A DNA stretch of 58,793 bases from an uncultured virus (IMG/VR IMGVR_UViG_3300040971_000013). Taxonomy: Duplodnaviria; Heunggongvirae; Uroviricota; Caudoviricetes. The first letter of the stretch is position 1. Every line of letters starts with the position of its first letter. The translations under genes and the position numbers were made by a program. The stretch lies in the IMG/VR virus record IMGVR_UViG_3300040971_000013; one strand, given 5' to 3'. The notes below the pieces were generated by a model. That model did no database searches, was not told the DNA's origin, and worked only from the letters and a program-made list of their open reading frames with translations. Positions 1,546-28,138 of this stretch are shown here, piece after piece.

Positions 1546-1758
1546 ATGATCTGGATAAAATCTTTTTGGATGGTTCTCATCGGATATGACTATTTTATTG
1601 TTGACGGAGAGGTCTTTGGATATTATCATAAGGCTAAACCATACTACGATAGTCTAAACGAATCACATGTTGTTATGCTCGGCTACAATATTATTATTGG
1701 CAGGACTTCAAAGGTTCATGAAAAATATAACCGGAACGGCACGTCTGTTCAATTCTAG
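1546..1758 (+). CDS. hypothetical protein
   Basis: ORF behind promoter with GGGGG RBS. Confidence 0.6.
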   Translation: MIWIKSFWMVLIGYDYFIVDGEVFGYYHKAKPYYDSLNESHVVMLGYNIIIGRTSKVHEKYNRNGTSVQF

Positions 1759-1767
1759 GAGATTCAC

Positions 1768-2802
1768 ATGTTGGCTTACACAAAAGATCTAAAAGTTTTT
1801 CGGTCTAAGGATTTCAACTATAACTTCGATATGAAGACAGGATTCACTCAACTCTGGGGAAGAACTGTTGATGAAGATCCGGAAGTTGCTCCGTTTCCTG
1901 TCATAGCCGACATAGAGATTACAGAGGTTTGTACTGGACCTGGAGTTGGATCACCTCAAGGCGGCGCTTGCAAATTTTGTTATAAATCAAATGTTCCTCA
2001 TAAAGGTTCTGTAATGTCGTTGGAGCTTGCAAAGAGTGTAATCAATAAACTGCCGAAAGAACTGACACAGATTGCATTCGGTGTTGATGCACAGTGCGAA
2101 TCCAATCCAGAATGGTATGAAATCTTTGCATATGCTCGTAGATCTGGATTCATTCCAAATGTAACTGTTGCAGATATTACAGAAGAGACCGCTGTAAAAC
2201 TTGCAAGTATGTGCGGAGCCGCTGCTGTCTCGCGTTATGTTGATAAGAACTGGTGCTATGACTCTATTGAAAAACTTACACGAAACGGTCTGAAACAGGT
2301 AAACATTCATATTCTACTCAGTTCGGAAACCCTTCCATGGGTCTATGAAACAATCGAAGATGCGAAAACAGATCCTCGTCTTGCTGGTCTAAATGCAATT
2401 GTATTCCTTTCATTGAAACAGAAAGGACGTGGCGTACACTTTAATAGAGTTTCTCAAGAGCAATACAAAGAAGTAGTAGACAAGTGCTTAGAAAAAGAAA
2501 TCAGCTTCGGTTTTGATAGCTGTGGATGTCATCGTTTCTTGGAAGCTGTTAAAGATCATAAACGATTCAAAGAATTTTCTATGATGGCAGAGCCATGCGA
2601 ATCTACAGCACAATCGGTATACGCCAACGCTCGCGGTGAAGTATTCCCATGTTCGTTTACTGAAGGAACTCCTGGATGGGAAGATGGGCTGTTCATTCCA
2701 GACTTCAAAACCTTTGATGAAATTTGGAATCATGAAAGAGTTCAAAAATTTCGGAATAATCTTCTATTGAATAAACGCCGGTGTCCAATCTATGACGTCT
2801 AA
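1768..2802 (+). CDS. radical SAM protein with C-terminal SPASM/Twitch-like domain
   Basis: C-x12-C-x2-C cluster motif (CTGPGVGSPQGGACKFC); C-terminal PCES...GEVFPCSF...CP. Confidence 0.85.
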   Translation: MLAYTKDLKVFRSKDFNYNFDMKTGFTQLWGRTVDEDPEVAPFPVIADIEITEVCTGPGVGSPQGGACKFCYKSNVPHKGSVMSLELAKSVINKLPKELTQIAFGVDAQCESNPEWYEIFAYARRSGFIPNVTVADITEETAVKLASMCGAAAVSRYVDKNWCYDSIEKLTRNGLKQVNIHILLSSETLPWVYETIEDAKTDPRLAGLNAIVFLSLKQKGRGVHFNRVSQEQYKEVVDKCLEKEISFGFDSCGCHRFLEAVKDHKRFKEFSMMAEPCESTAQSVYANARGEVFPCSFTEGTPGWEDGLFIPDFKTFDEIWNHERVQKFRNNLLLNKRRCPIYDV

Positions 2803-3031
2803 CAATTCCTTGACAGAAGAAAGTCTTGTATATAGACTACAAAAACGGGCAGAGATTCGTCGGCAGATTCCAGGTAGAAAATCGGTTCAAGAGAATAAAC
2901 CTGACAGAATTGCTGATTTGTTAGAGGAAGCAGCCAAGGAAATTCTATATCTAAAGAAGATTGCTACAGGACCTTGGAGATGTAATGTCTGTGGTAATTA
3001 TGTAACAAATGAATGCGCAGAAACGGAGTAG
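2792..3031 (+). CDS. conserved phage hypothetical protein
   Basis: LVYRL.KRAEIRRQI..RKSVQE..PDRIADLLEEAA; CxxC tail. Confidence 0.65.
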   Translation: MTSNNSLTEESLVYRLQKRAEIRRQIPGRKSVQENKPDRIADLLEEAAKEILYLKKIATGPWRCNVCGNYVTNECAETE

Positions 3032-3034
3032 ATC

Positions 3035-3469
3035 ATGAAAATTAGAACTGGATTTGTTTCTAATAGTTCGTCAAGCAGTTTTATCGTTATCAATAATTCT
3101 GGTACCAGAGTTCATCCACCGTTCTCTGACAGATTATACATCGATATGACTTCTGGAGAATATGAATTTGCATGGCAGATAGAAGATTATAATGATTTCA
3201 ATTCAAAGTTCAATTGGTGTTATATTATGGCATCATATCAAGAGGAAGAAGAAAAAGATCGTCTACATCAGATGCTGAGAGAAGCAATTGAAGAAGAACT
3301 TGGTGTTCCTGTTGAAATCAATTGGGATGCTCAATCAGAATTTGACTACTATATTGACCATGGATCTGTTGAAGATCATAATAGGGCTATGTTCGATAGT
3401 AAAGAAGAGCTAAAGCTGTTCCTCTTTGATCCAGCAAGCTACATTCATAACGACAACGATAATCATTAA
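3035..3469 (+). CDS. MKIRxGFxSNSSSSSF-family protein 1
   Basis: N-terminus MKIRTGFVSNSSSSSF. Confidence 0.8.
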   Translation: MKIRTGFVSNSSSSSFIVINNSGTRVHPPFSDRLYIDMTSGEYEFAWQIEDYNDFNSKFNWCYIMASYQEEEEKDRLHQMLREAIEEELGVPVEINWDAQSEFDYYIDHGSVEDHNRAMFDSKEELKLFLFDPASYIHNDNDNH

Positions 3470-3478
3470 GAGGAATGA

Positions 3479-3695
3479 TATGGATCTATCAGATCTAACA
3501 TACGAAGCAGGCTATCCAGCAGATATGGATAAAAGTCAACCAATATATCTGTTCAATCCAGAAACAGGTGTTCTTTCCACACAACCGTGTGTAATGTATA
3601 AAAGTAAGATATCTGGAAAGTGGACAAGATCATACCTTGAAAAAAAAAAAACAGATGCACCGAAAGGTATGACAGAATTCAATACTAGGAGATAA
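3479..3695 (+). CDS. hypothetical protein
   Basis: GAGG RBS before ATG (MDLSDL...); start approximate. Confidence 0.55.
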
Positions 3696-3698
3696 GAA

Positions 3699-4001
3699 AT
3701 GAAAATTCGAGCAGGGTTTATATCTAATTCAAGCAGTTCAAGTTTTTGTATTTTGGGTGTTGTTGCTGATCACGACCTCAACTCAGAAATCAAATGGGAT
3801 CTTCCAAAAGGGTTTGTGTATGAATATGGCATCAGTGACTATGATGGTGAATTTATTGGAATGAATCCAGAGAGTCTTGATGAGAATATGACAATCAAAC
3901 AACATAAGGAATACATTGCAAAAACTTTGTCAGAATCTTATGGTGTGGAAGTAAAATCCGAAGAAGTTAGTTGGCATTGTGACGGAGGTTATGACGGATG
4001 A
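3699..4001 (+). CDS. MKIRxGFxSNSSSSSF-family protein 2
   Basis: N-terminus MKIRAGFISNSSSSSF. Confidence 0.8.
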   Translation: MKIRAGFISNSSSSSFCILGVVADHDLNSEIKWDLPKGFVYEYGISDYDGEFIGMNPESLDENMTIKQHKEYIAKTLSESYGVEVKSEEVSWHCDGGYDG

Positions 4002-4363
4002 AGATCAGAACCGGGTTTGTAAGCAATAGTTCAAGTAGTAGTTTTATTCTACCATACAACAAAGATCTGACTGTTTCTATTACTGTTGATGATCTTATTG
4101 ATATTATAGATAACGCAGATGAATCTTATGTAAAAGAACCGTTGCATACTGTTGATGATCTCAATAAATATTTTGTTGAACAGTATGGATATAGAGATCA
4201 GACTATTGACGAACTCTTAAATGCCGATGAATATTACCAAGAAGAATATTCTAAATTGTTCGATATTATTAAATCTGGTCAGTCTGTTCTTGTTGGAACT
4301 ATTTCATATCATGAATGTGTGGCAACAGAATTACTGAAAAAGATGGGCGCTGAAATTGACTAA
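3998..4363 (+). CDS. MKIRxGFxSNSSSSSF-family protein 3
   Basis: N-terminus MKIRTGFVSNSSSSSF; ATGA overlap with previous gene. Confidence 0.8.
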   Translation: MKIRTGFVSNSSSSSFILPYNKDLTVSITVDDLIDIIDNADESYVKEPLHTVDDLNKYFVEQYGYRDQTIDELLNADEYYQEEYSKLFDIIKSGQSVLVGTISYHECVATELLKKMGAEID

Positions 4364-4670
4364 AGGAGCATTTATGATTTTGGATAAGTTAGAAAGATTA
4401 CAAGCAGAAGCAGTAAAGATTTGTGGAAGTACTGCAAATGCAAAGTATACTCTACCAGAAGATATTCTGGAGCAGATTCCACAACAGTTCAGAGAAATAT
4501 ATTCCAAGATGGATCCTTTCACATGCTGTATTACATTGAATCTCCTCAACTTCTACTTCAGAAGTATGTATGAGATGCTTAGTTCTGATGCAGATATTGA
4601 ACTATCAAGAGAGAAATTGAATTCTCTTATGGAAGAAGATTTGAAACTAATCTTCAAACAAAAAGATTGA
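4356..4670 (+). CDS. hypothetical protein
   Basis: ORF in operon; AAGGAG RBS before internal ATG. Confidence 0.6.
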   Translation: MTKGAFMILDKLERLQAEAVKICGSTANAKYTLPEDILEQIPQQFREIYSKMDPFTCCITLNLLNFYFRSMYEMLSSDADIELSREKLNSLMEEDLKLIFKQKD

Positions 4671-5423: not shown

Positions 5424-5555
5424 AGGGATATACTATGGAACTAACAATTCGGATAAATGGAAAAGTCATTCGTCAAAAAGCAATTCAGACATCAAAAGGA
5501 TATAAATGGGATCTGCCTGGATTTGTTATTGATCGTGAGCTACAGGAGAAGGAAC

Positions 5556-5930
5556 GTGACATCGATCGGAATACTGAGAAAGGTTCTTGATGAAGCAGAG
5601 AAAAGCACTGTCTATCCTCACCGAGTTGGAGCAATTGTCTTTCGTGGAAAAAGGATATTGGGCTTTGGTCATAACTCCAATTCGTTGTGTAGCCTTCATC
5701 CAAAGTATGTACGATACAATGAATCTGTCCATGCTGAACAAGCTGCAATATCTTCGCTTGATTGGTCGAAACTTCGAGGAGCTTCTATTCTTGTCATACG
5801 TCTCACTCGTAGAGGTAAACTTGCTATGAGTAAACCATGTGCAATGTGTCAGGCTTTAATTGAACATGTTAAGATCAAGAAAGTGTATTATTCTAATTCT
5901 TACGGTGAAATTGTTATGGAGAAACTATGA
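5556..5930 (+). CDS. zinc-dependent CMP/dCMP-type deaminase
   Basis: HAE...PCxxC motif; GTG start after AGGAG. Confidence 0.85.
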   Translation: MTSIGILRKVLDEAEKSTVYPHRVGAIVFRGKRILGFGHNSNSLCSLHPKYVRYNESVHAEQAAISSLDWSKLRGASILVIRLTRRGKLAMSKPCAMCQALIEHVKIKKVYYSNSYGEIVMEKL

Positions 5931-7353: not shown

Positions 7354-7432
7354 CTCCCTCTCGCCTAACTTGGTTATGGCTCTCGGTTTGGAGCCGAGTA
7401 TAATGCTTGTTCGAATCAAGCGGGGGAGACCA
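7354..7432 (+). tRNA. tRNA-Pro(TGG)
   Basis: cloverleaf; CTCGG-TTTGGAG-CCGAG anticodon arm; TTCGAAT T loop; CCA end. Confidence 0.9.
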
Positions 7433-7435
7433 TAT

Positions 7436-7513
7436 GTCCTCGTAGTCCAACTGGTAGGAGACAAGAGATTCAAGATCTCTACAGTGTCTGTTCGAATCAG
7501 ACCGGGGATACCA
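7436..7513 (+). tRNA. tRNA-Leu(CAA) with short variable loop
   Basis: AGAGA-TTCAAGA-TCTCT arm; TTCGAAT; CCA end. Confidence 0.85.
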
Positions 7514-7532
7514 TGAAACAAGGAAACTAATA

Positions 7533-7682
7533 ATGAAAACTGTATGGGTTGTAATAGAAAGTGATCGAGGAATGGGTGAGTCTGTCCTAGGTGTCTATAT
7601 ATCAAAAGACAAAGCTTTTAAACTTGCTGCTGAATCTTCTCACTATTATGTGACTGAATCAGAACTTGATGAAGATGAATAG
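7533..7682 (+). CDS. small hypothetical protein inside tRNA array
   Basis: 49-aa ORF MKTVWVVIE...; AAGGA RBS. Confidence 0.55.
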   Translation: MKTVWVVIESDRGMGESVLGVYISKDKAFKLAAESSHYYVTESELDEDE

Positions 7683-7689
7683 AACATTA

Positions 7690-7761
7690 GCCGATATAGT
7701 TCAGTGGTAGAACGCTTGTTTTGTAATCAAGATGTCGGGAGTTCAAATCTCTCTATCGGCT
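7690..7761 (+). tRNA. tRNA-Thr(TGT)
   Basis: GCCGATA/TATCGGC acceptor stem; TTTGTAA loop; GTTCAAATC; no encoded CCA. Confidence 0.9.
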
Positions 7762-7773
7762 CAAATAAATTTT

Positions 7774-7857
7774 GCTCTCGTGGTGGAACGGGATACACGC
7801 TGGTCTTAGAAACCAGTGCCTTCGGGATTGTAGGTTCAAATCCTACCGGGAGTACCA
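7774..7857 (+). tRNA. tRNA-Leu(TAG)
   Basis: CTGGT-CTTAGAA-ACCAG; long variable arm; CCA end. Confidence 0.92.
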
Positions 7858-7858
7858 T

Positions 7859-7981
7859 GTTTGGTTCGTCTAATAATCTGTCTGAATTGCGCAATAAATG
7901 ACAGATAAGACTCCATTTTAAATATGGAAATACAGGACAATAGATTATGCATGATCATTGAGCGCCCTGTACCAAATACCA
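7859..7981 (+). ncRNA. enlarged tRNA-like RNA (TAA anticodon) with hairpins inserted in D and T loops
   Basis: GTTTGGT/ACCAAAT acceptor + ACCA; GTCT/AGAC D stem; TCCAT-TTTAAAT-ATGGA anticodon arm; ACAGG/CCTGT T stem. Confidence 0.7.
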
Positions 7982-7985
7982 TTTT

Positions 7986-8061
7986 GTGTCTGAACCCAAA
8001 TAGCGAGGGCACTGGCCGTGACCCAGTTGGCTAGTGGGAGCGTTACCCACCGGACACTCCA
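7986..8061 (+). tRNA. atypical tRNA-His(GTG)
   Basis: ACTGG-CCGTGAC-CCAGT arm; GTGGG-AGCGTTA-CCCAC T arm; CCA end. Confidence 0.75.
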
Positions 8062-8063
8062 AT

Positions 8064-8175
8064 TTTTGACCACTCTTAGCGGAGGAGCGTAGGATAAGGC
8101 GGATTGTCTTGCGGTACTTATCAATTACGTCACATCATCCAAGAGTAAGCAGACATGAGGGATGATTGGTCAAAA
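8064..8175 (+). ncRNA. candidate pseudoknotted structured RNA
   Basis: TTTTGACCA/TGGTCAAAA closing stem; ATCATCC/GGATGAT stem; ACTCTT/AAGAGT pseudoknot. Confidence 0.5.
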
Positions 8176-8181
8176 TATCTA

Positions 8182-8210
8182 TTGACAGTTTATCTTAACT
8201 TAGATATTCT
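8182..8210 (+). promoter_or_regulatory. sigma70-type promoter upstream of tRNA(CAT)
   Basis: TTGACA-N17-TATTCT. Confidence 0.75.
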
Positions 8211-8230
8211 ATTCTCATCTGAAACCATAT

Positions 8231-8306
8231 TGCCGTATAGTTCAATTGGTAGAATCCCCGGCTCATAACCGGACAGTTCCAGATTCGAGTTCTGGTGCGG
8301 CAACCA
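8231..8306 (+). tRNA. tRNA with CAT anticodon (Met or Ile2)
   Basis: CCGG-CTCATAA-CCGG arm; TGCCGTA/TGCGGCA acceptor; CCA end. Confidence 0.9.
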
Positions 8307-21364: not shown

Positions 21365-21464
21365 NNNNNNNNNNNNNNNNNNNNNNNNNNNNNNNNNNNN
21401 NNNNNNNNNNNNNNNNNNNNNNNNNNNNNNNNNNNNNNNNNNNNNNNNNNNNNNNNNNNNNNNN
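21365..21464. other. assembly gap (100 N)
   Basis: run of N. Confidence 1.
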
Positions 21465-24594: not shown

Positions 24595-25146
24595 CTAACC
24601 TCTGTTTCTATCTTTCCATACTGAAGTAGCAGTTGCCTTGTGAAAGTGAGCTAATGGAAGTTCAATTACGTTAATCCATTCATTCATCGGTACTTCAATC
24701 AATTTTGTTCTCATATGCGAAAAAAGGTATCTTTTAAAGCAGTGCTTCCATCTTGAATGAGATAATCCAAGAAGCTTCTTATAAGATATAGTAATATTAT
24801 TTATACTACGACCAGATACAAGTTTTTGAAAGGGGACAAGTTGTTCTAATAGATAGTGTCGTTCTTTGATCGGAAGATAGTGAAAGTTCAGACCATAAAA
24901 TCCACCAGGAGCAGCATCAACCAAAATGATACATGGGTTAGAATCCCAGTACGGTAATTTATCTTTAGTCTTTGCATCATAGACCATTAGATACATTCTA
25001 CCGACCTTTGGTTTAGAAACCTGTTTGACGTTCGGCATTTCATTCTTAATCTTATTGAACAACCAGTTCATGGATCTACGAGCATTTCTTGATACTGTAG
25101 ATTTAGTAATCCCACCAAGGACTTCTTTTGCATATTGATTTATCAT
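24595..25146 (-). CDS. 2: DNA end protector gp2
   Basis: YDAKTKDKLPYWD.NP, GLNFHYLP, KRYL. Confidence 0.92.
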   Translation of the reverse strand: MINQYAKEVLGGITKSTVSRNARRSMNWLFNKIKNEMPNVKQVSKPKVGRMYLMVYDAKTKDKLPYWDSNPCIILVDAAPGGFYGLNFHYLPIKERHYLLEQLVPFQKLVSGRSINNITISYKKLLGLSHSRWKHCFKRYLFSHMRTKLIEVPMNEWINVIELPLAHFHKATATSVWKDRNRG

Positions 25147-25684: not shown

Positions 25685-25784
25685 NNNNNNNNNNNNNNNN
25701 NNNNNNNNNNNNNNNNNNNNNNNNNNNNNNNNNNNNNNNNNNNNNNNNNNNNNNNNNNNNNNNNNNNNNNNNNNNNNNNNNNNN
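25685..25784. other. assembly gap (100 N)
   Basis: run of N. Confidence 1.
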
Positions 25785-26504: not shown

Positions 26505-27650
26505 CTAAAGACTTTCTAGCTTGAGGTCTCCAATGAGACCTGATTCTTGCTTCACCGGAACCCGTGTTCCTCCACAAGCAAACAACGCCGTTGCCGCGTC
26601 TTTGATATTTATGGCTGCGTTCAAGTCTCTATCAATCGACAGACCACAGTTTTCGCAATGGTAGGTTCTCTCACTAAGAGACAAATCTTTCTTGACGAAA
26701 CCGCACGCAGAACAAGTTTTACTTGAAGGATAGAACCTACCAACTTCAACTAGTTCTTTGACTTTATGTTTTAGTTTCATTTTGAATGAGAACCATGGAA
26801 GCTGTTGAATAGATGGTGCCAAACAATGATTTTTCTTCATTCCTTGAATGTTTAGATTTTCCATTGAAACAACATCGTAACTCTTGGCTATCGAGCTAAC
26901 ATAGTTGTTTATTAGATCATCTTTTATTCTTGAGATTTTTCTATATTGTTTTGCAACCTTTATTCTAGCTTTATTTCTGTTATTTGATCCTTTTTGTTTT
27001 CTAGTAAATGATCTTTGAAGTTTCTTTAGTTTCGTTGTTTCTTGTTCTAGTTTTGGTAGTTCGAAGACTTCACCATCACTAGTGATAGCAAAGGTTTTTA
27101 TACCAAGATCAATACCGACTACTGATTTGTAATCTATGGTAGGTACCGGTACATCTTGTTCACATAAGATAGAAACGAACCATTGATCCACATCGAGGGA
27201 AATTACCAAAGATTTAGCTTTGCCTGATAGTTTTCTATGATTGACTATTTTTATCCAACCAATCTTCGGCAATTTAACTTTGTTGCCACGGATATTAAAA
27301 TGTTGTGGTACAGAGAAAGCTTGTTTAGAACTCTTTCTTGATTTGAATTTAGGAAAACCACCAGTTTTATGTTTGAATTTATTACTAAAAGCTTTACCCA
27401 AATTTAGTGCAGATTGTTGAAGTGATTGACTGTTTACTTTCTTCAACCAATCATTATTTTCTTTTATTGGTTTTACCGCATTAGATAATGCCATACCGAA
27501 CATAAATTTCTTCTCATTTTCATATAAGGAAATTTGTTGTTCAAGGAGTTTATTATAAATAAAACGGGACGCACCACAATGTTCTATAAACAAGGATTCT
27601 TGCGTTTTGGTAGGTTTTATTCTAAACTTATATGAAATATATCTAATCAT
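26505..27650 (-). CDS. tnpB: RNA-guided endonuclease TnpB
   Basis: GIDLG, MENL, CSACG/CENCG zinc finger, DRDLNAAINI all intact. Confidence 0.96.
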   Translation of the reverse strand: MIRYISYKFRIKPTKTQESLFIEHCGASRFIYNKLLEQQISLYENEKKFMFGMALSNAVKPIKENNDWLKKVNSQSLQQSALNLGKAFSNKFKHKTGGFPKFKSRKSSKQAFSVPQHFNIRGNKVKLPKIGWIKIVNHRKLSGKAKSLVISLDVDQWFVSILCEQDVPVPTIDYKSVVGIDLGIKTFAITSDGEVFELPKLEQETTKLKKLQRSFTRKQKGSNNRNKARIKVAKQYRKISRIKDDLINNYVSSIAKSYDVVSMENLNIQGMKKNHCLAPSIQQLPWFSFKMKLKHKVKELVEVGRFYPSSKTCSACGFVKKDLSLSERTYHCENCGLSIDRDLNAAINIKDAATALFACGGTRVPVKQESGLIGDLKLESL

Positions 27651-27709
27651 ATATCTATTTATATGTTTTGAAATTTCACTCTCACAAAATCAAATAAGGA
27701 ATTTATATA

Positions 27710-28138
27710 ATGTTGAAGAAATCTAGTAATTCAGTACATCACTTATCAATTCATTTGATTTTTGTGGTGAAATATAGGAAGAAATTACTCATCAAATTCG
27801 GTGAAGATATGAAAAAATTGTTGTTGGAATGTTCAGACAAAAGTGATAAGTTTGATATTACTCATATAGAAGTAGATCGGGATCATGTTCATATGATGAT
27901 TGATTATATACCAACAGAATCAGTTTCGAACATCGTTAGACAGTTGAAGTCCTATAGTGTGTTTCATATATGGAGGATGCACGGAGAAATATTAGAATAT
28001 CAATTTTGGAAAGAAAAGATGTTTTGGAGCAAGTCGTATTTTGTATGTTCTGTAGGAGACTGCTCTAGAGAAACTGTTGCGAAATATATTGGATCTCAAG
28101 GTGGATTACCACAAAACAAACGCAAATTCATCTCTTGA
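27710..28138 (+). CDS. tnpA: Y1 HUH transposase TnpA
   Basis: HLIFVVKYR, DHVHM, FWSKSYF, KYI..Q. Confidence 0.95.
   Translation: MLKKSSNSVHHLSIHLIFVVKYRKKLLIKFGEDMKKLLLECSDKSDKFDITHIEVDRDHVHMMIDYIPTESVSNIVRQLKSYSVFHIWRMHGEILEYQFWKEKMFWSKSYFVCSVGDCSRETVAKYIGSQGGLPQNKRKFIS

Follow-up and report, generated by a model that had tools for sequence, protein, structure and literature searches.

Introduction

The known substrates of radical S-adenosylmethionine (SAM) maturases are short ribosomal peptides and a handful of dedicated proteins, among them sulfatases, QhpC and HxsA. Here we describe a locus in which one such enzyme appears to serve a universal N-terminal tag carried by hundreds of otherwise unrelated proteins of unknown function, mostly viral and often 3-12 per genome. 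The locus lies in the IMG/VR virus record IMGVR_UViG_3300040971_000013, an uncultured virus of the Caudoviricetes whose 58,793 nucleotides (nt) form the whole stretch of DNA analysed (hereafter the window). It consists of a gene for a radical SAM enzyme of 344 amino acids (aa), followed by the genes of three client proteins, P1, P2 and P3, which begin with almost the same 16 residues (the tag) and continue into dissimilar bodies. An original prediction, made from the sequence, had taken these genes for a tightly coupled, phage-encoded system of post-translational modification, with the shared peptide as its recognition or modification site.

The structurally closest described systems are the leader-guided maturases of ribosomally synthesised and post-translationally modified peptides (RiPPs). 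CteB, SuiB-SuiA and SkfB-SkfA belong to the same fold class as the window enzyme and gave its best Foldseek matches (5why, 1.1e-9; 5v1t, 1.1e-8; 6efn, 1.8e-7). In these maturases a conserved N-terminal segment of the substrate likewise binds as an added strand and the residues that follow enter the barrel, as is predicted here, and one enzyme likewise acts on several substrates encoded nearby. The differences are nevertheless considerable. Leader-guided RiPP maturases have a PqqD-like element, either in the enzyme or in a partner, whereas the window enzyme has none (no Pfam match besides SPASM at E<=1) and has four short N-terminal strands instead. Their precursors are short, whereas the clients of the present module span 45-390 aa and P1, the only body modelled, folds confidently. 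Their leaders are cut off by a co-encoded protease or exporter, whereas no protease or transporter family is common across the loci studied here. Finally, in the window module the handle and the presumed site both lie within a tag that starts at residue 1, and it is whole bodies that vary rather than a short core.

A second parallel is the anaerobic sulfatase-maturating enzyme (anSME), also a radical SAM enzyme, which converts Ser or Cys to formylglycine; its target residue belongs to a short motif close to the N-terminus of a whole protein, as we propose for a serine of the tag. It is a structural neighbour of the window enzyme (Foldseek, 4k39 at 1.6e-7 and 4k36 at 2.4e-7), and the cysteine pattern of its auxiliary cluster I is presumably the same as that of the window enzyme's site; anSME has two auxiliary clusters, however, whereas the window enzyme has cysteines for one. 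The sulfatase motif recognised by anSME is (C/S)-x-(P/A)-x-R. No P/A-x-R follows any serine of the tag, the NCBIfam anSME model gave no match to the window enzyme at E<=1, and a relative scored 15.3 bits against a cut-off of 441, so that membership of the anSME family was rejected. BtrN, which oxidises an alcohol by two electrons, resembles the window enzyme in that its SPASM domain is truncated and has one auxiliary cluster; the enzyme family profile matches it at profile residues 270-330 (E 8.6e-4), and its oxidation chemistry is the one proposed here for serine. The BtrN substrate is a small-molecule aminocyclitol, however, and the Foldseek match to it is weak (TM 0.26).

The HXS antiphage system is reported to have two radical SAM enzymes, HxsB and HxsC, that mature HxsA (PMC13128918). 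It resembles the window module in the radical SAM maturation of a protein effector, in N-terminal processing and in its place in the conflict between phage and bacterium, and it differs in being bacterial and in directing two radical SAM enzymes and HxsD at the His-Xaa-Ser repeats of a single periplasmic effector (PMC13128918). The window module has one enzyme, a single N-terminal tag centred on Asn-Ser-Ser and many clients, found mostly in phage genomes. With only one radical SAM gene, and with no His-x-Ser repeats in P1-P3, it was not assigned to HXS; the PADLOC library of 2023, which may lack HXS, gave no match for the enzyme.

The internal proteins of phage T4 offer a parallel of another kind. 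They are small proteins from hypervariable loci that have only a short N-terminal capsid-targeting peptide in common, a sequence of about 10 aa that is cut after (L/I)-x-E by the prohead protease. The window tag is a different peptide, has no (L/I)xE site and is linked to a radical SAM enzyme. Glutamate is outside the five commonest residues at every tag position from 1 to 16 (466 tags), and an assignment to the T4 capsid-targeting class was rejected; T4 itself has neither the tag nor the enzyme.

We found no description of the tag or of the module in open-access full text and bioRxiv, as judged by listings and abstracts. The tag strings had no matches there, and shorter strings matched only unrelated papers. 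Public annotations of the clients read hypothetical protein, and the module is widespread and wholly uncharacterised.

The N-terminal tag

The enzyme gene (1768-2802) and the genes of P1 (3035-3469, 144 aa), P2 (3699-4001, 100 aa) and P3 (3998-4363, 121 aa) all lie on the plus strand. The tag of P1, MKIRTGFVSNSSSSSF (3035-3082, plus strand), recurs in P3 (3998-4045, plus strand), and P2 carries MKIRAGFISNSSSSSF (3699-3746, plus strand); together they read MKIR[TA]GF[VI]SNSSSSSF, as had been noticed in the original prediction for the open reading frames (ORFs) starting at 3035, 3699 and 3998. A six-frame scan of the whole window placed the motif at an ORF start in these three places only. The tags of P1 and P3 are identical at 16/16 residues, yet 9/16 of their codons differ synonymously (35/48 nt identical), and the tag of P2 differs from each of the other two at 2 residues. 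Given this synonymous codon turnover, neither an RNA or DNA element nor a recent duplication explains the tag, and an mRNA-level reading of it was rejected on that ground.

In the wider collection of tagged proteins described below, the motif stands exactly 8 residues after the start codon in 559/564 cases. The profile of 466 distinct proteins consists of M1, K2 (98%), R4 (97%), G6 (82%, with Asp in 11%), F7 (97%), V8 (95%), S9 (83%, with Thr in 16%), N10, S11, S12, S13 (93%), S14 (86%), S15 (98%) and F16 (94%), followed by two hydrophobic residues. The strict search pattern had forced N10 and S12, and the survey was repeated with an anchor on residues 1-8 only. Among the 29 clear variants that failed the strict pattern, N10 and S11 were kept in 29/29 and S12 in 28/29, while positions 13-16 accepted C, Q, E, G, V, T, A, M, D or N. 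This retention identifies N-S-S as the core of the tag.

The tag also varies with the enzyme beside it. Beside enzymes of the twitch-like type found in the window, 249/280 distinct tags have G6 and S9, and beside enzymes with a full SPASM domain T9 occurs in 56/57 tags and D6 in 45/57, a pattern in the sequences that fits co-adaptation of tag and enzyme clade. The free tag is predicted to be flexible, residues 1-11 of P1 having a predicted local distance difference test (pLDDT) score <50 in an otherwise confident AlphaFold 2 (AF2) model.

Two further readings of the tag were considered and rejected. A signal peptide or export signal would need a hydrophobic stretch, and the tag has none. Glycyl-radical enzymes have a glycine loop of the form R-V-x-G-[FYW] whose Gly is invariant; position 6 of the tag is Gly in 82% and Asp in 11% of cases, and the spacing between Arg and Gly differs.

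Co-occurrence of enzyme and tag

A scan of IMG/VR for the tag found it in more than 639 stretches, and in the 71 loci returned the tagged ORFs form same-strand arrays of up to 10. An enzyme homologue lies <=10 kb away in 54/71 of these tag-selected viral loci (42/57 dereplicated groups). For 14 of the 17 tag contigs without a nearby enzyme the whole contig was searched, and the enzyme was found elsewhere in 5 of them, including 3/3 of those that are >=90% complete. Scanned in the opposite direction, IMG/VR holds relatives of the enzyme in 283 stretches, the best 80 of which were examined as loci; 65/80 have 1-12 tagged ORFs, all on the strand of the enzyme (61/72 after dereplication). Five of the 15 enzyme loci without a nearby tag were searched whole, with tags found elsewhere in 3, and both near-complete contigs among those five hold them (3 and 5 tagged ORFs). 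Counting both directions, 5/5 near-complete contigs checked for a missing partner hold it.

The same pairing is seen outside viruses, where 34/41 tag-selected bacterial and archaeal loci carry the enzyme (36 when fragments at contig ends are included), or 31/37 groups. In Lachnospiraceae the module is often a bare pair, in which a tagged protein of 120-126 aa is followed by the enzyme. In the first 74 sources, no feature apart from the tagged proteins and the enzyme was common to more than 13 loci.

Among cultured phages, the enzyme occurs in 172 GenBank phage records, mainly of T4-like phages of Klebsiella, Enterobacter, Cronobacter, Citrobacter and Escherichia. In RB16, Miro, CfP1, phiEap-3 and Rpl1 it is accompanied by two tagged ORFs on the same strand, 20-24 kb away, which in RB16 are annotated as hypothetical proteins (RB16p106 and RB16p111). 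In Vibrio phage D479 the 21-kb stretch read around the enzyme gene contains four tagged ORFs, which brings to six the cultured phages that carry both enzyme and tag. As a control we examined five gp2-bearing myoviruses that lack the enzyme, namely T4, Aeromonas Asfd_1, Salmonella P46FS4, Acinetobacter Kimel and Nitratidesulfovibrio SRB7757 (four T4-type, one of the Ackermannviridae), and the tag was absent in 5/5. The tag itself also occurs outside T4-type phages.

The association between motif and enzyme that the original prediction called for is therefore present in both directions, after dereplication and at whole-genome level, and the small negative control agrees with it. The description of the system as phage-encoded was right for the window, which derives from a T4-like myovirus, and can be extended, since the module is also found on bacterial and archaeal contigs.

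Several single loci deserve mention. A sister contig of the window (G001, the contig of locus L003), whose enzyme is 80% identical, also encodes three tagged proteins outside its array, 23-38 kb upstream (58494-59000, 73299), two of which are Cys-rich proteins of 127 aa starting ...SSSFICxxC. The window's own phage may hold further clients beyond the window. On a contig of a Lachnospiraceae metagenome-assembled genome (L178, 6569-11848), a tagged protein of 124 aa and a full-SPASM enzyme form a pair directly downstream of a Pycsar-type two-transmembrane effector (PycTM; Pfam 6e-10, PADLOC 4.2e-39), a 480-aa protein and an IrrE-like peptidase, and a helix-turn-helix gene comes after the pair. 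In Dorea acetigenes (L189) the pair of tagged protein and enzyme adjoins a phage-type integrase. The setting of these two pairs is a mobile or defence island.

The radical SAM enzyme

The window enzyme belongs to an uncurated, mostly viral clade of SPASM/twitch enzymes, represented in PHROGs by phrog_7293 (function unknown; E 1.2e-98). Its translation contains a SAM-cluster motif C55-x12-C68-x2-C71 (1930-1980, plus strand) with a non-canonical first spacing. The three cysteines are invariant in our narrower enzyme alignment (A3), which was used for the locus scan because the broader one (A2) was too diverse; the first spacing varies among relatives, the RB16 enzyme having C-x7-C-x2-C. The sole Pfam match at E<=1 is SPASM, at residues 277-331 (23.9 bits against a cut-off of 21.5). 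The upstream radical SAM protein with a C-x12-C-x2-C motif and a SPASM- or twitch-like tail, as originally proposed, is thus recovered in both respects. The radical SAM family PF04055 did not match the window enzyme at E<=1, and one relative reached 2.9e-4, below the cut-off. The three-cysteine motif, together with the partial triosephosphate isomerase (TIM) barrel predicted in the structural model, places the enzyme in the radical SAM superfamily.

At its C-terminal end the enzyme has a single four-cysteine site, C252, C277-x12-G290-x4-C295 and C339 (2521-2784, plus strand). All four cysteines are kept in 56/56 homologues and are invariant in alignment A2. The full SPASM motif has seven cysteines, CX9-15GX4C ... 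CX2CX5CX3C ... C. The window enzyme ends with ...RRCPIYDV right after C339, and the CX2CX5CX3C block is absent; a full, two-cluster SPASM domain was rejected on this account despite the Pfam match. Lacking that block, the window clade is twitch-like, with ligands for one auxiliary cluster, and the sequence has the features of a putative twitch-domain radical SAM enzyme, namely the CX9-15GX4C hairpin and the ligands of one cluster. A distant clade (L031, L036, L052 and others; 25-30% identity) keeps the full CxxCx5CxxxC SPASM block. Membership of the NCBIfam subfamily N_Twi_rSAM was also rejected (13.2 bits against a cut-off of 170), and none of the curated NCBIfam families came near its cut-off.

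The AF2 model of the enzyme (pLDDT 92.1) has four short strands within residues 2-30, including one at 27-30. A Foldseek search with it gave 168 PDB matches at E<=0.001, those listed being radical SAM enzymes, with CteB, SuiB, DesII, anSME and SkfB as the top neighbours; the family profile matches SkfB at 6.6e-6 and BtrN at 8.6e-4. The enzyme is a radical SAM protein of the peptide- or protein-maturase type, from an undescribed family.

In three viral loci the match to the enzyme gene is split into two parts, separated by about 1.0-1.1 kb in L020 (6613-8675) and L021 (6345-8581) and by about 160 nt in L006 (3470-4633). Judging from the arrangement of the matches, this suggests an intron, the insertion of a homing endonuclease or a frameshift. 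A gene for a homing endonuclease directly adjoins that of the enzyme in Vibrio phage D479.

Predicted contact between enzyme and tag

We co-folded the enzyme (alignment A3) with P1 (alignment A1) in the presence of SAM and two clusters. The score was 0.76 (runs of 0.76, 0.74 and 0.77), compared with 0.00 for the best of 3 controls; in calibration this mark was reached by 116/157 solved complexes and by 2/215 mismatched pairs. Between runs >=81% of the contacts agree, and the partner has a pLDDT of >=68. On the side of the client the predicted interface consists of P1 residues 1-19 only, so that the model puts the shared peptide on and in the enzyme, as the original prediction would have it.

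The contacts of lowest predicted error join tag residues 1-7 to enzyme residues 24-30, 34 and 37. They fall in a predicted docking strand and N-terminus cap at enzyme residues 24-38 (KTGFTQLWGRTVDED; 1837-1881, plus strand), where G25 is invariant and G31, D37 and P38 are >=90% conserved in A2, and W30 is invariant in A3. The other enzyme residues of the interface line the barrel (101-105, 129-133, 149-153, 177-181, 209-214, 246-251, 270-275 and 295-297). In all, 15/27 invariant columns of the enzyme fall among the 48 interface residues (Fisher p 9e-8).

The tagged proteins

Beyond the tag, P1-P3 have the unrelated and acidic bodies that were originally described. BLASTP after residue 18 finds no significant similarity among them (E 0.21-3.6), and the isoelectric points (pI) of the three proteins are 4.31-4.48. 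Iterated hidden Markov models of the three bodies collected three disjoint families of 30, 45 and 39 members with no overlap, and hhalign gave probabilities of 8.5, 2.1 and 0.1% between the families. When compared with the P1 alignment A1, only the tag aligns (P2, 24 columns; P3, 22 columns).

P1 belongs to a large family. A library clustered at 50% identity contains 882 of its representatives at E<=1e-3; at E<=1e-10 the number is 339. Its invariant residues are F45, W47, I107, H109 and D142 and its motifs GExEFGW, YIDHQS and a C-terminal DNDNH; the invariant residues look like a metal- or ligand-binding site. The AF2 model of P1 is confident (pLDDT 87.5). Its fold found nothing in the PDB by Foldseek at E<=0.001 and only uncharacterised phage proteins in BFVD; the best VIA-align wide match had a Z of 3.0, the best profile match to PDB sequences an E of 0.062, and two ESM Atlas look-ups gave scores of at most 0.89, all to 'hypothetical protein'. 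Among longer proteins, of 253-2000 aa, no fused form of P1 was found at E<=0.001, which is weak evidence.

Searches of Pfam, NCBIfam, PHROGs and PADLOC gave no named family for P1-P3, the sole match being phrog_7397 (unknown function), which matches P3 through its tag (8.7e-7). A word-based homologue search with P3 returned 3 close relatives only. P2 ends in ...HCDGGYDG and RB16p106 (L074, 1081-1548) in ...CGGGYDG, marking a client family with a conserved extreme C-terminus. Residues 50-115 of P3 weakly match a PADLOC model of a Type I restriction specificity subunit (PDLC03071, E 1e-4, 19.5 bits) and nothing in Pfam, which could reflect mimicry of the helical region of HsdS, or chance.

In the collection as a whole, tagged proteins have a median length of 134 aa (range 45-390) and a median pI of 4.69. 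By sequence, the bodies of 464 tagged proteins form 146 components; with those from genome contigs included, 548 proteins form 158. The Pfam cut-off was reached by 0/120 representatives of tagged-protein families, and 5/30 representatives match phrog_7397 only.

Proposed mechanism and alternatives

The co-occurrence of enzyme and tag and the anatomy of the tag were observed here, and the fold class of the enzyme and its interface with the tag were computed. We consider it likely that many client proteins, in the window P1-P3, carry a portable N-terminal tag which a single radical SAM maturase modifies. As for the modification system first proposed, in which the shared peptide was the site of recognition or modification, the co-occurrence and the co-fold at residues 1-19 speak for it, while the covalent change itself, together with its site, chemistry and biological role, is what we infer.

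The substrate in this scheme would have the consensus M-K-[IVT]-R-x-[GD]-F-V-[ST]-N-S-S-S-S-S-F. Tag residues 1-7 would act in the manner of a leader, adding as a beta-strand to the small N-terminal sheet of the enzyme (24-30), and a pocket at enzyme residues 29-30 and 34-38 would cap Met1, making the free N-terminus a ruler; such a cap would account for the constant start of the tag at residue 1. The remaining tag residues would lie in the partial TIM barrel, near the auxiliary-cluster ligand C295, where a 5'-deoxyadenosyl radical would abstract a hydrogen from the invariant N10, S11 or S12. The single auxiliary cluster and the all-serine target make serine oxidation our first guess for the product, that is, a two-electron oxidation to formylglycine of the anSME/BtrN type (-2 Da), though we hold it only tentatively. 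An intramolecular cross-link involving F7 or F16 (-2 Da) is a slightly weaker candidate, epimerisation a less likely one, and some other product is also conceivable. The anSME-like chemistry is a guess in particular, as the enzyme fails the tests for anSME membership.

In this scheme a single enzyme would supply one modification to a changing group of small, acidic phage proteins that are unrelated to one another and all require it. The number of the clients, their small size, acidity and fast evolution, and their place among early or nucleotide-metabolism genes suggest a role in host takeover or counter-defence; they are probably factors of this kind. A bolder version, to which we give just under an even chance, is that the module is a widespread viral tag-and-modify system. 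A single covalent change at N-S-S, such as the aldehyde of formylglycine or a cross-link, would arm or mature a rapidly changing arsenal of host-takeover or counter-defence proteins through a tag grafted onto well over 100 unrelated families of small acidic proteins, with minimal two-gene bacterial versions in mobile or defence islands.

Several points weigh against modification of the tag by the enzyme. The co-occurrence counts come from up to 80 best loci per scan and are not a census. In 9/14 of the tag contigs searched whole the enzyme was not found, all nine being incomplete (11-79% complete), and the distance of about 20 kb between enzyme and tagged ORFs in cultured T4-like phages means that the operon is not obligate. 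The covariation between tag and enzyme clade is uncorrected for shared ancestry, which confounds it. The co-fold score is the confidence of a model and no measurement; our own alignments, SAM and the clusters depart from the set-up used for calibration, and the existence of solved radical SAM-peptide complexes (SuiB-SuiA, 5v1t; anSME-peptide, 4k39) means that the score may partly reflect likeness to them. The output, moreover, came without coordinates and places no tag residue relative to SAM, and invariant enzyme residues would line the barrel with any substrate. The case for modification as such is drawn from comparison of sequences and from prediction.

Some of these data would be met equally by a tag that serves as a docking handle and stays chemically unchanged, the tagged proteins being interchangeable adaptors that each bring a different target (host protein, nucleic acid or small molecule) to the enzyme, or regulators that switch it on or off. 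Co-occurrence and co-fold fit binding without chemistry just as well, the most confident contacts are those of tag residues 1-7 with enzyme residues 24-30 rather than those of the serine run, and many unrelated bodies per genome would suit specificity adaptors. Yet the most conserved positions of the tag are N10, S11 and S12, and the tag as modelled, to residue 19, touches the barrel at 101-105, 129-133, 177-181, 246-251 and 295-297, beside the cluster ligand. An adaptor bound in this way would block the active site that it is meant to serve, and the structural relatives of the enzyme all act on the bound peptide itself; we therefore regard a pure docking handle as unlikely. The link might also be metabolic, if the serine-rich N-terminus were a ligand-binding loop (for a phosphate or nucleotide, for example) shared by a rapidly diverging superfamily of small proteins, and the enzyme made a small molecule that these bind or process. 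The invariant residues of the P1 family (F45, W47, H109 and D142, with YIDHQS and DNDNH) include polar ones of the kind seen in binding or catalytic sites, positions 17-18 of the tag are hydrophobic and lead into the body's first beta-strand, and enzyme and tagged genes can sit 20 kb apart, all of which would agree with such a loop. A shared pocket is nonetheless hard to reconcile with 146-158 body components and with three window families that have no detectable homology. In P1 alone residues 1-11 are predicted to be disordered, the co-fold puts the tag in the enzyme, and a loop within a fold would hardly keep a fixed distance from Met1 in 559/564 cases. These observations make a ligand-binding loop very unlikely.

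A further alternative is that the tag is a signal for sorting, packaging or stability (capsid targeting, injection or protection against N-end degradation, for example) that works independently of the enzyme, the two co-occurring because they share hypervariable early regions. Arrays of diverse small proteins with a common N-terminal peptide do recall the internal-protein loci of T4, and the tag always lies at the extreme N-terminus. The pairing holds, however, across enzyme clades that are only 25-30% identical and on bacterial and archaeal contigs, where its form is often a bare pair of two genes, and tag variants track the clade of the enzyme. The tag also lacks the Glu of the (L/I)xE cleavage rule and any hydrophobic stretch for export, and we judge an enzyme-independent signal highly improbable. 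Modification of the tag by the enzyme remains our preferred reading.

If it is true, the module would establish a new class of protein maturation directed by an enzyme, and with it a new tag-enzyme pair that can be genetically encoded. It would offer a first way into the function of a large part of phage 'dark matter', and it predicts a new post-translational modification centred on the invariant Asn-Ser-Ser. The prediction is directly testable, as cultured Escherichia coli phages (RB16 and relatives) have the enzyme and two clients. A short tag and a compact enzyme could also become a tool for site-specific protein labelling, for which the aldehyde tag of the formylglycine-generating enzyme is a precedent.

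Genomic setting of the module

Pfam and PHROGs matches of its proteins identify the window as a fragment of a T4-like myovirus. It begins with the C-terminal domain of an RNase H (1-360) and encodes a dCMP deaminase (5457-5930), a cluster of five tRNAs (Pro-TGG, Leu-CAA, Thr-TGT, Leu-TAG and Met-CAT; 7354-8306), PhoH, a helicase loader, baseplate hub, tail tube, gp2-like end protector and head-closure proteins. The module is part of a same-strand run of genes from orf70 (1546-1758, plus strand) to orf104 (4356-4670, plus strand), the latter encoding an untagged protein of 104 aa that has no family match and overlaps the end of P3.

Two further small ORFs lie inside the module. The first, orf79 (2792-3031, plus strand; 79 aa), has a CxxC knuckle and stands between the enzyme and P1; the second (3426-3695, plus strand) occupies the spacer between P1 and P2. 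In tblastn against the 192 loci collected, orf79 matched only L003 and L082, which belong to one contig, and partly L086, and the small ORFs around the module were present only in the sister contig of the window. We take orf79, the spacer ORF and orf104 to be lineage-specific and outside the conserved module. The tight coupling originally described applies to P2 and P3, which overlap by 4 nt, and to the enzyme, orf79 and P1, but not to P1 and P2, which are 229 nt apart with the small ORF inside.

Variants of this arrangement were seen in four wastewater runs that are labelled RNA-Seq, are probably DNA and give short contigs of relatives only. One contig (depth 4) joins 2798 to 3025 and skips orf79, and in contigs of three runs 3469-3645, in the spacer ORF, is swapped for 26 other letters. 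Several contigs match only 35 tag-coding nt (3035-3069) and have different flanks, as could be expected if that community has many different tagged genes. Among 50,697 phage records there was no near relative of the region at the DNA level except one 128-nt stretch. A scan for promoters and terminators gave 23 sites, against 19.0 +/- 4.4 in shuffled sequences, and is not above background.

Elsewhere in the window, an IS200/IS605-like pair (26505-28138) lies among the head-closure and tail genes. It comprises a transposase-like ORF of 381 aa on the minus strand (phrog_506, E 5.4e-114) and an ORF of 142 aa on the plus strand (phrog_2577, E 4.2e-34). Runs of 100 N are found within the structural gene region at 21365-21464 and 25685-25784, the second adjoining this pair. 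The gp2-like end protector (24595-25146) has its top identity (37.9%, among 30 sampled rows) to a phage of the sulfate reducer Nitratidesulfovibrio, and the DNA of the window was found complete only in runs labelled hydrocarbon metagenome; no RNA run was listed as containing it. The phage may have an anaerobic host, in which an oxygen-sensitive enzyme would be well placed.

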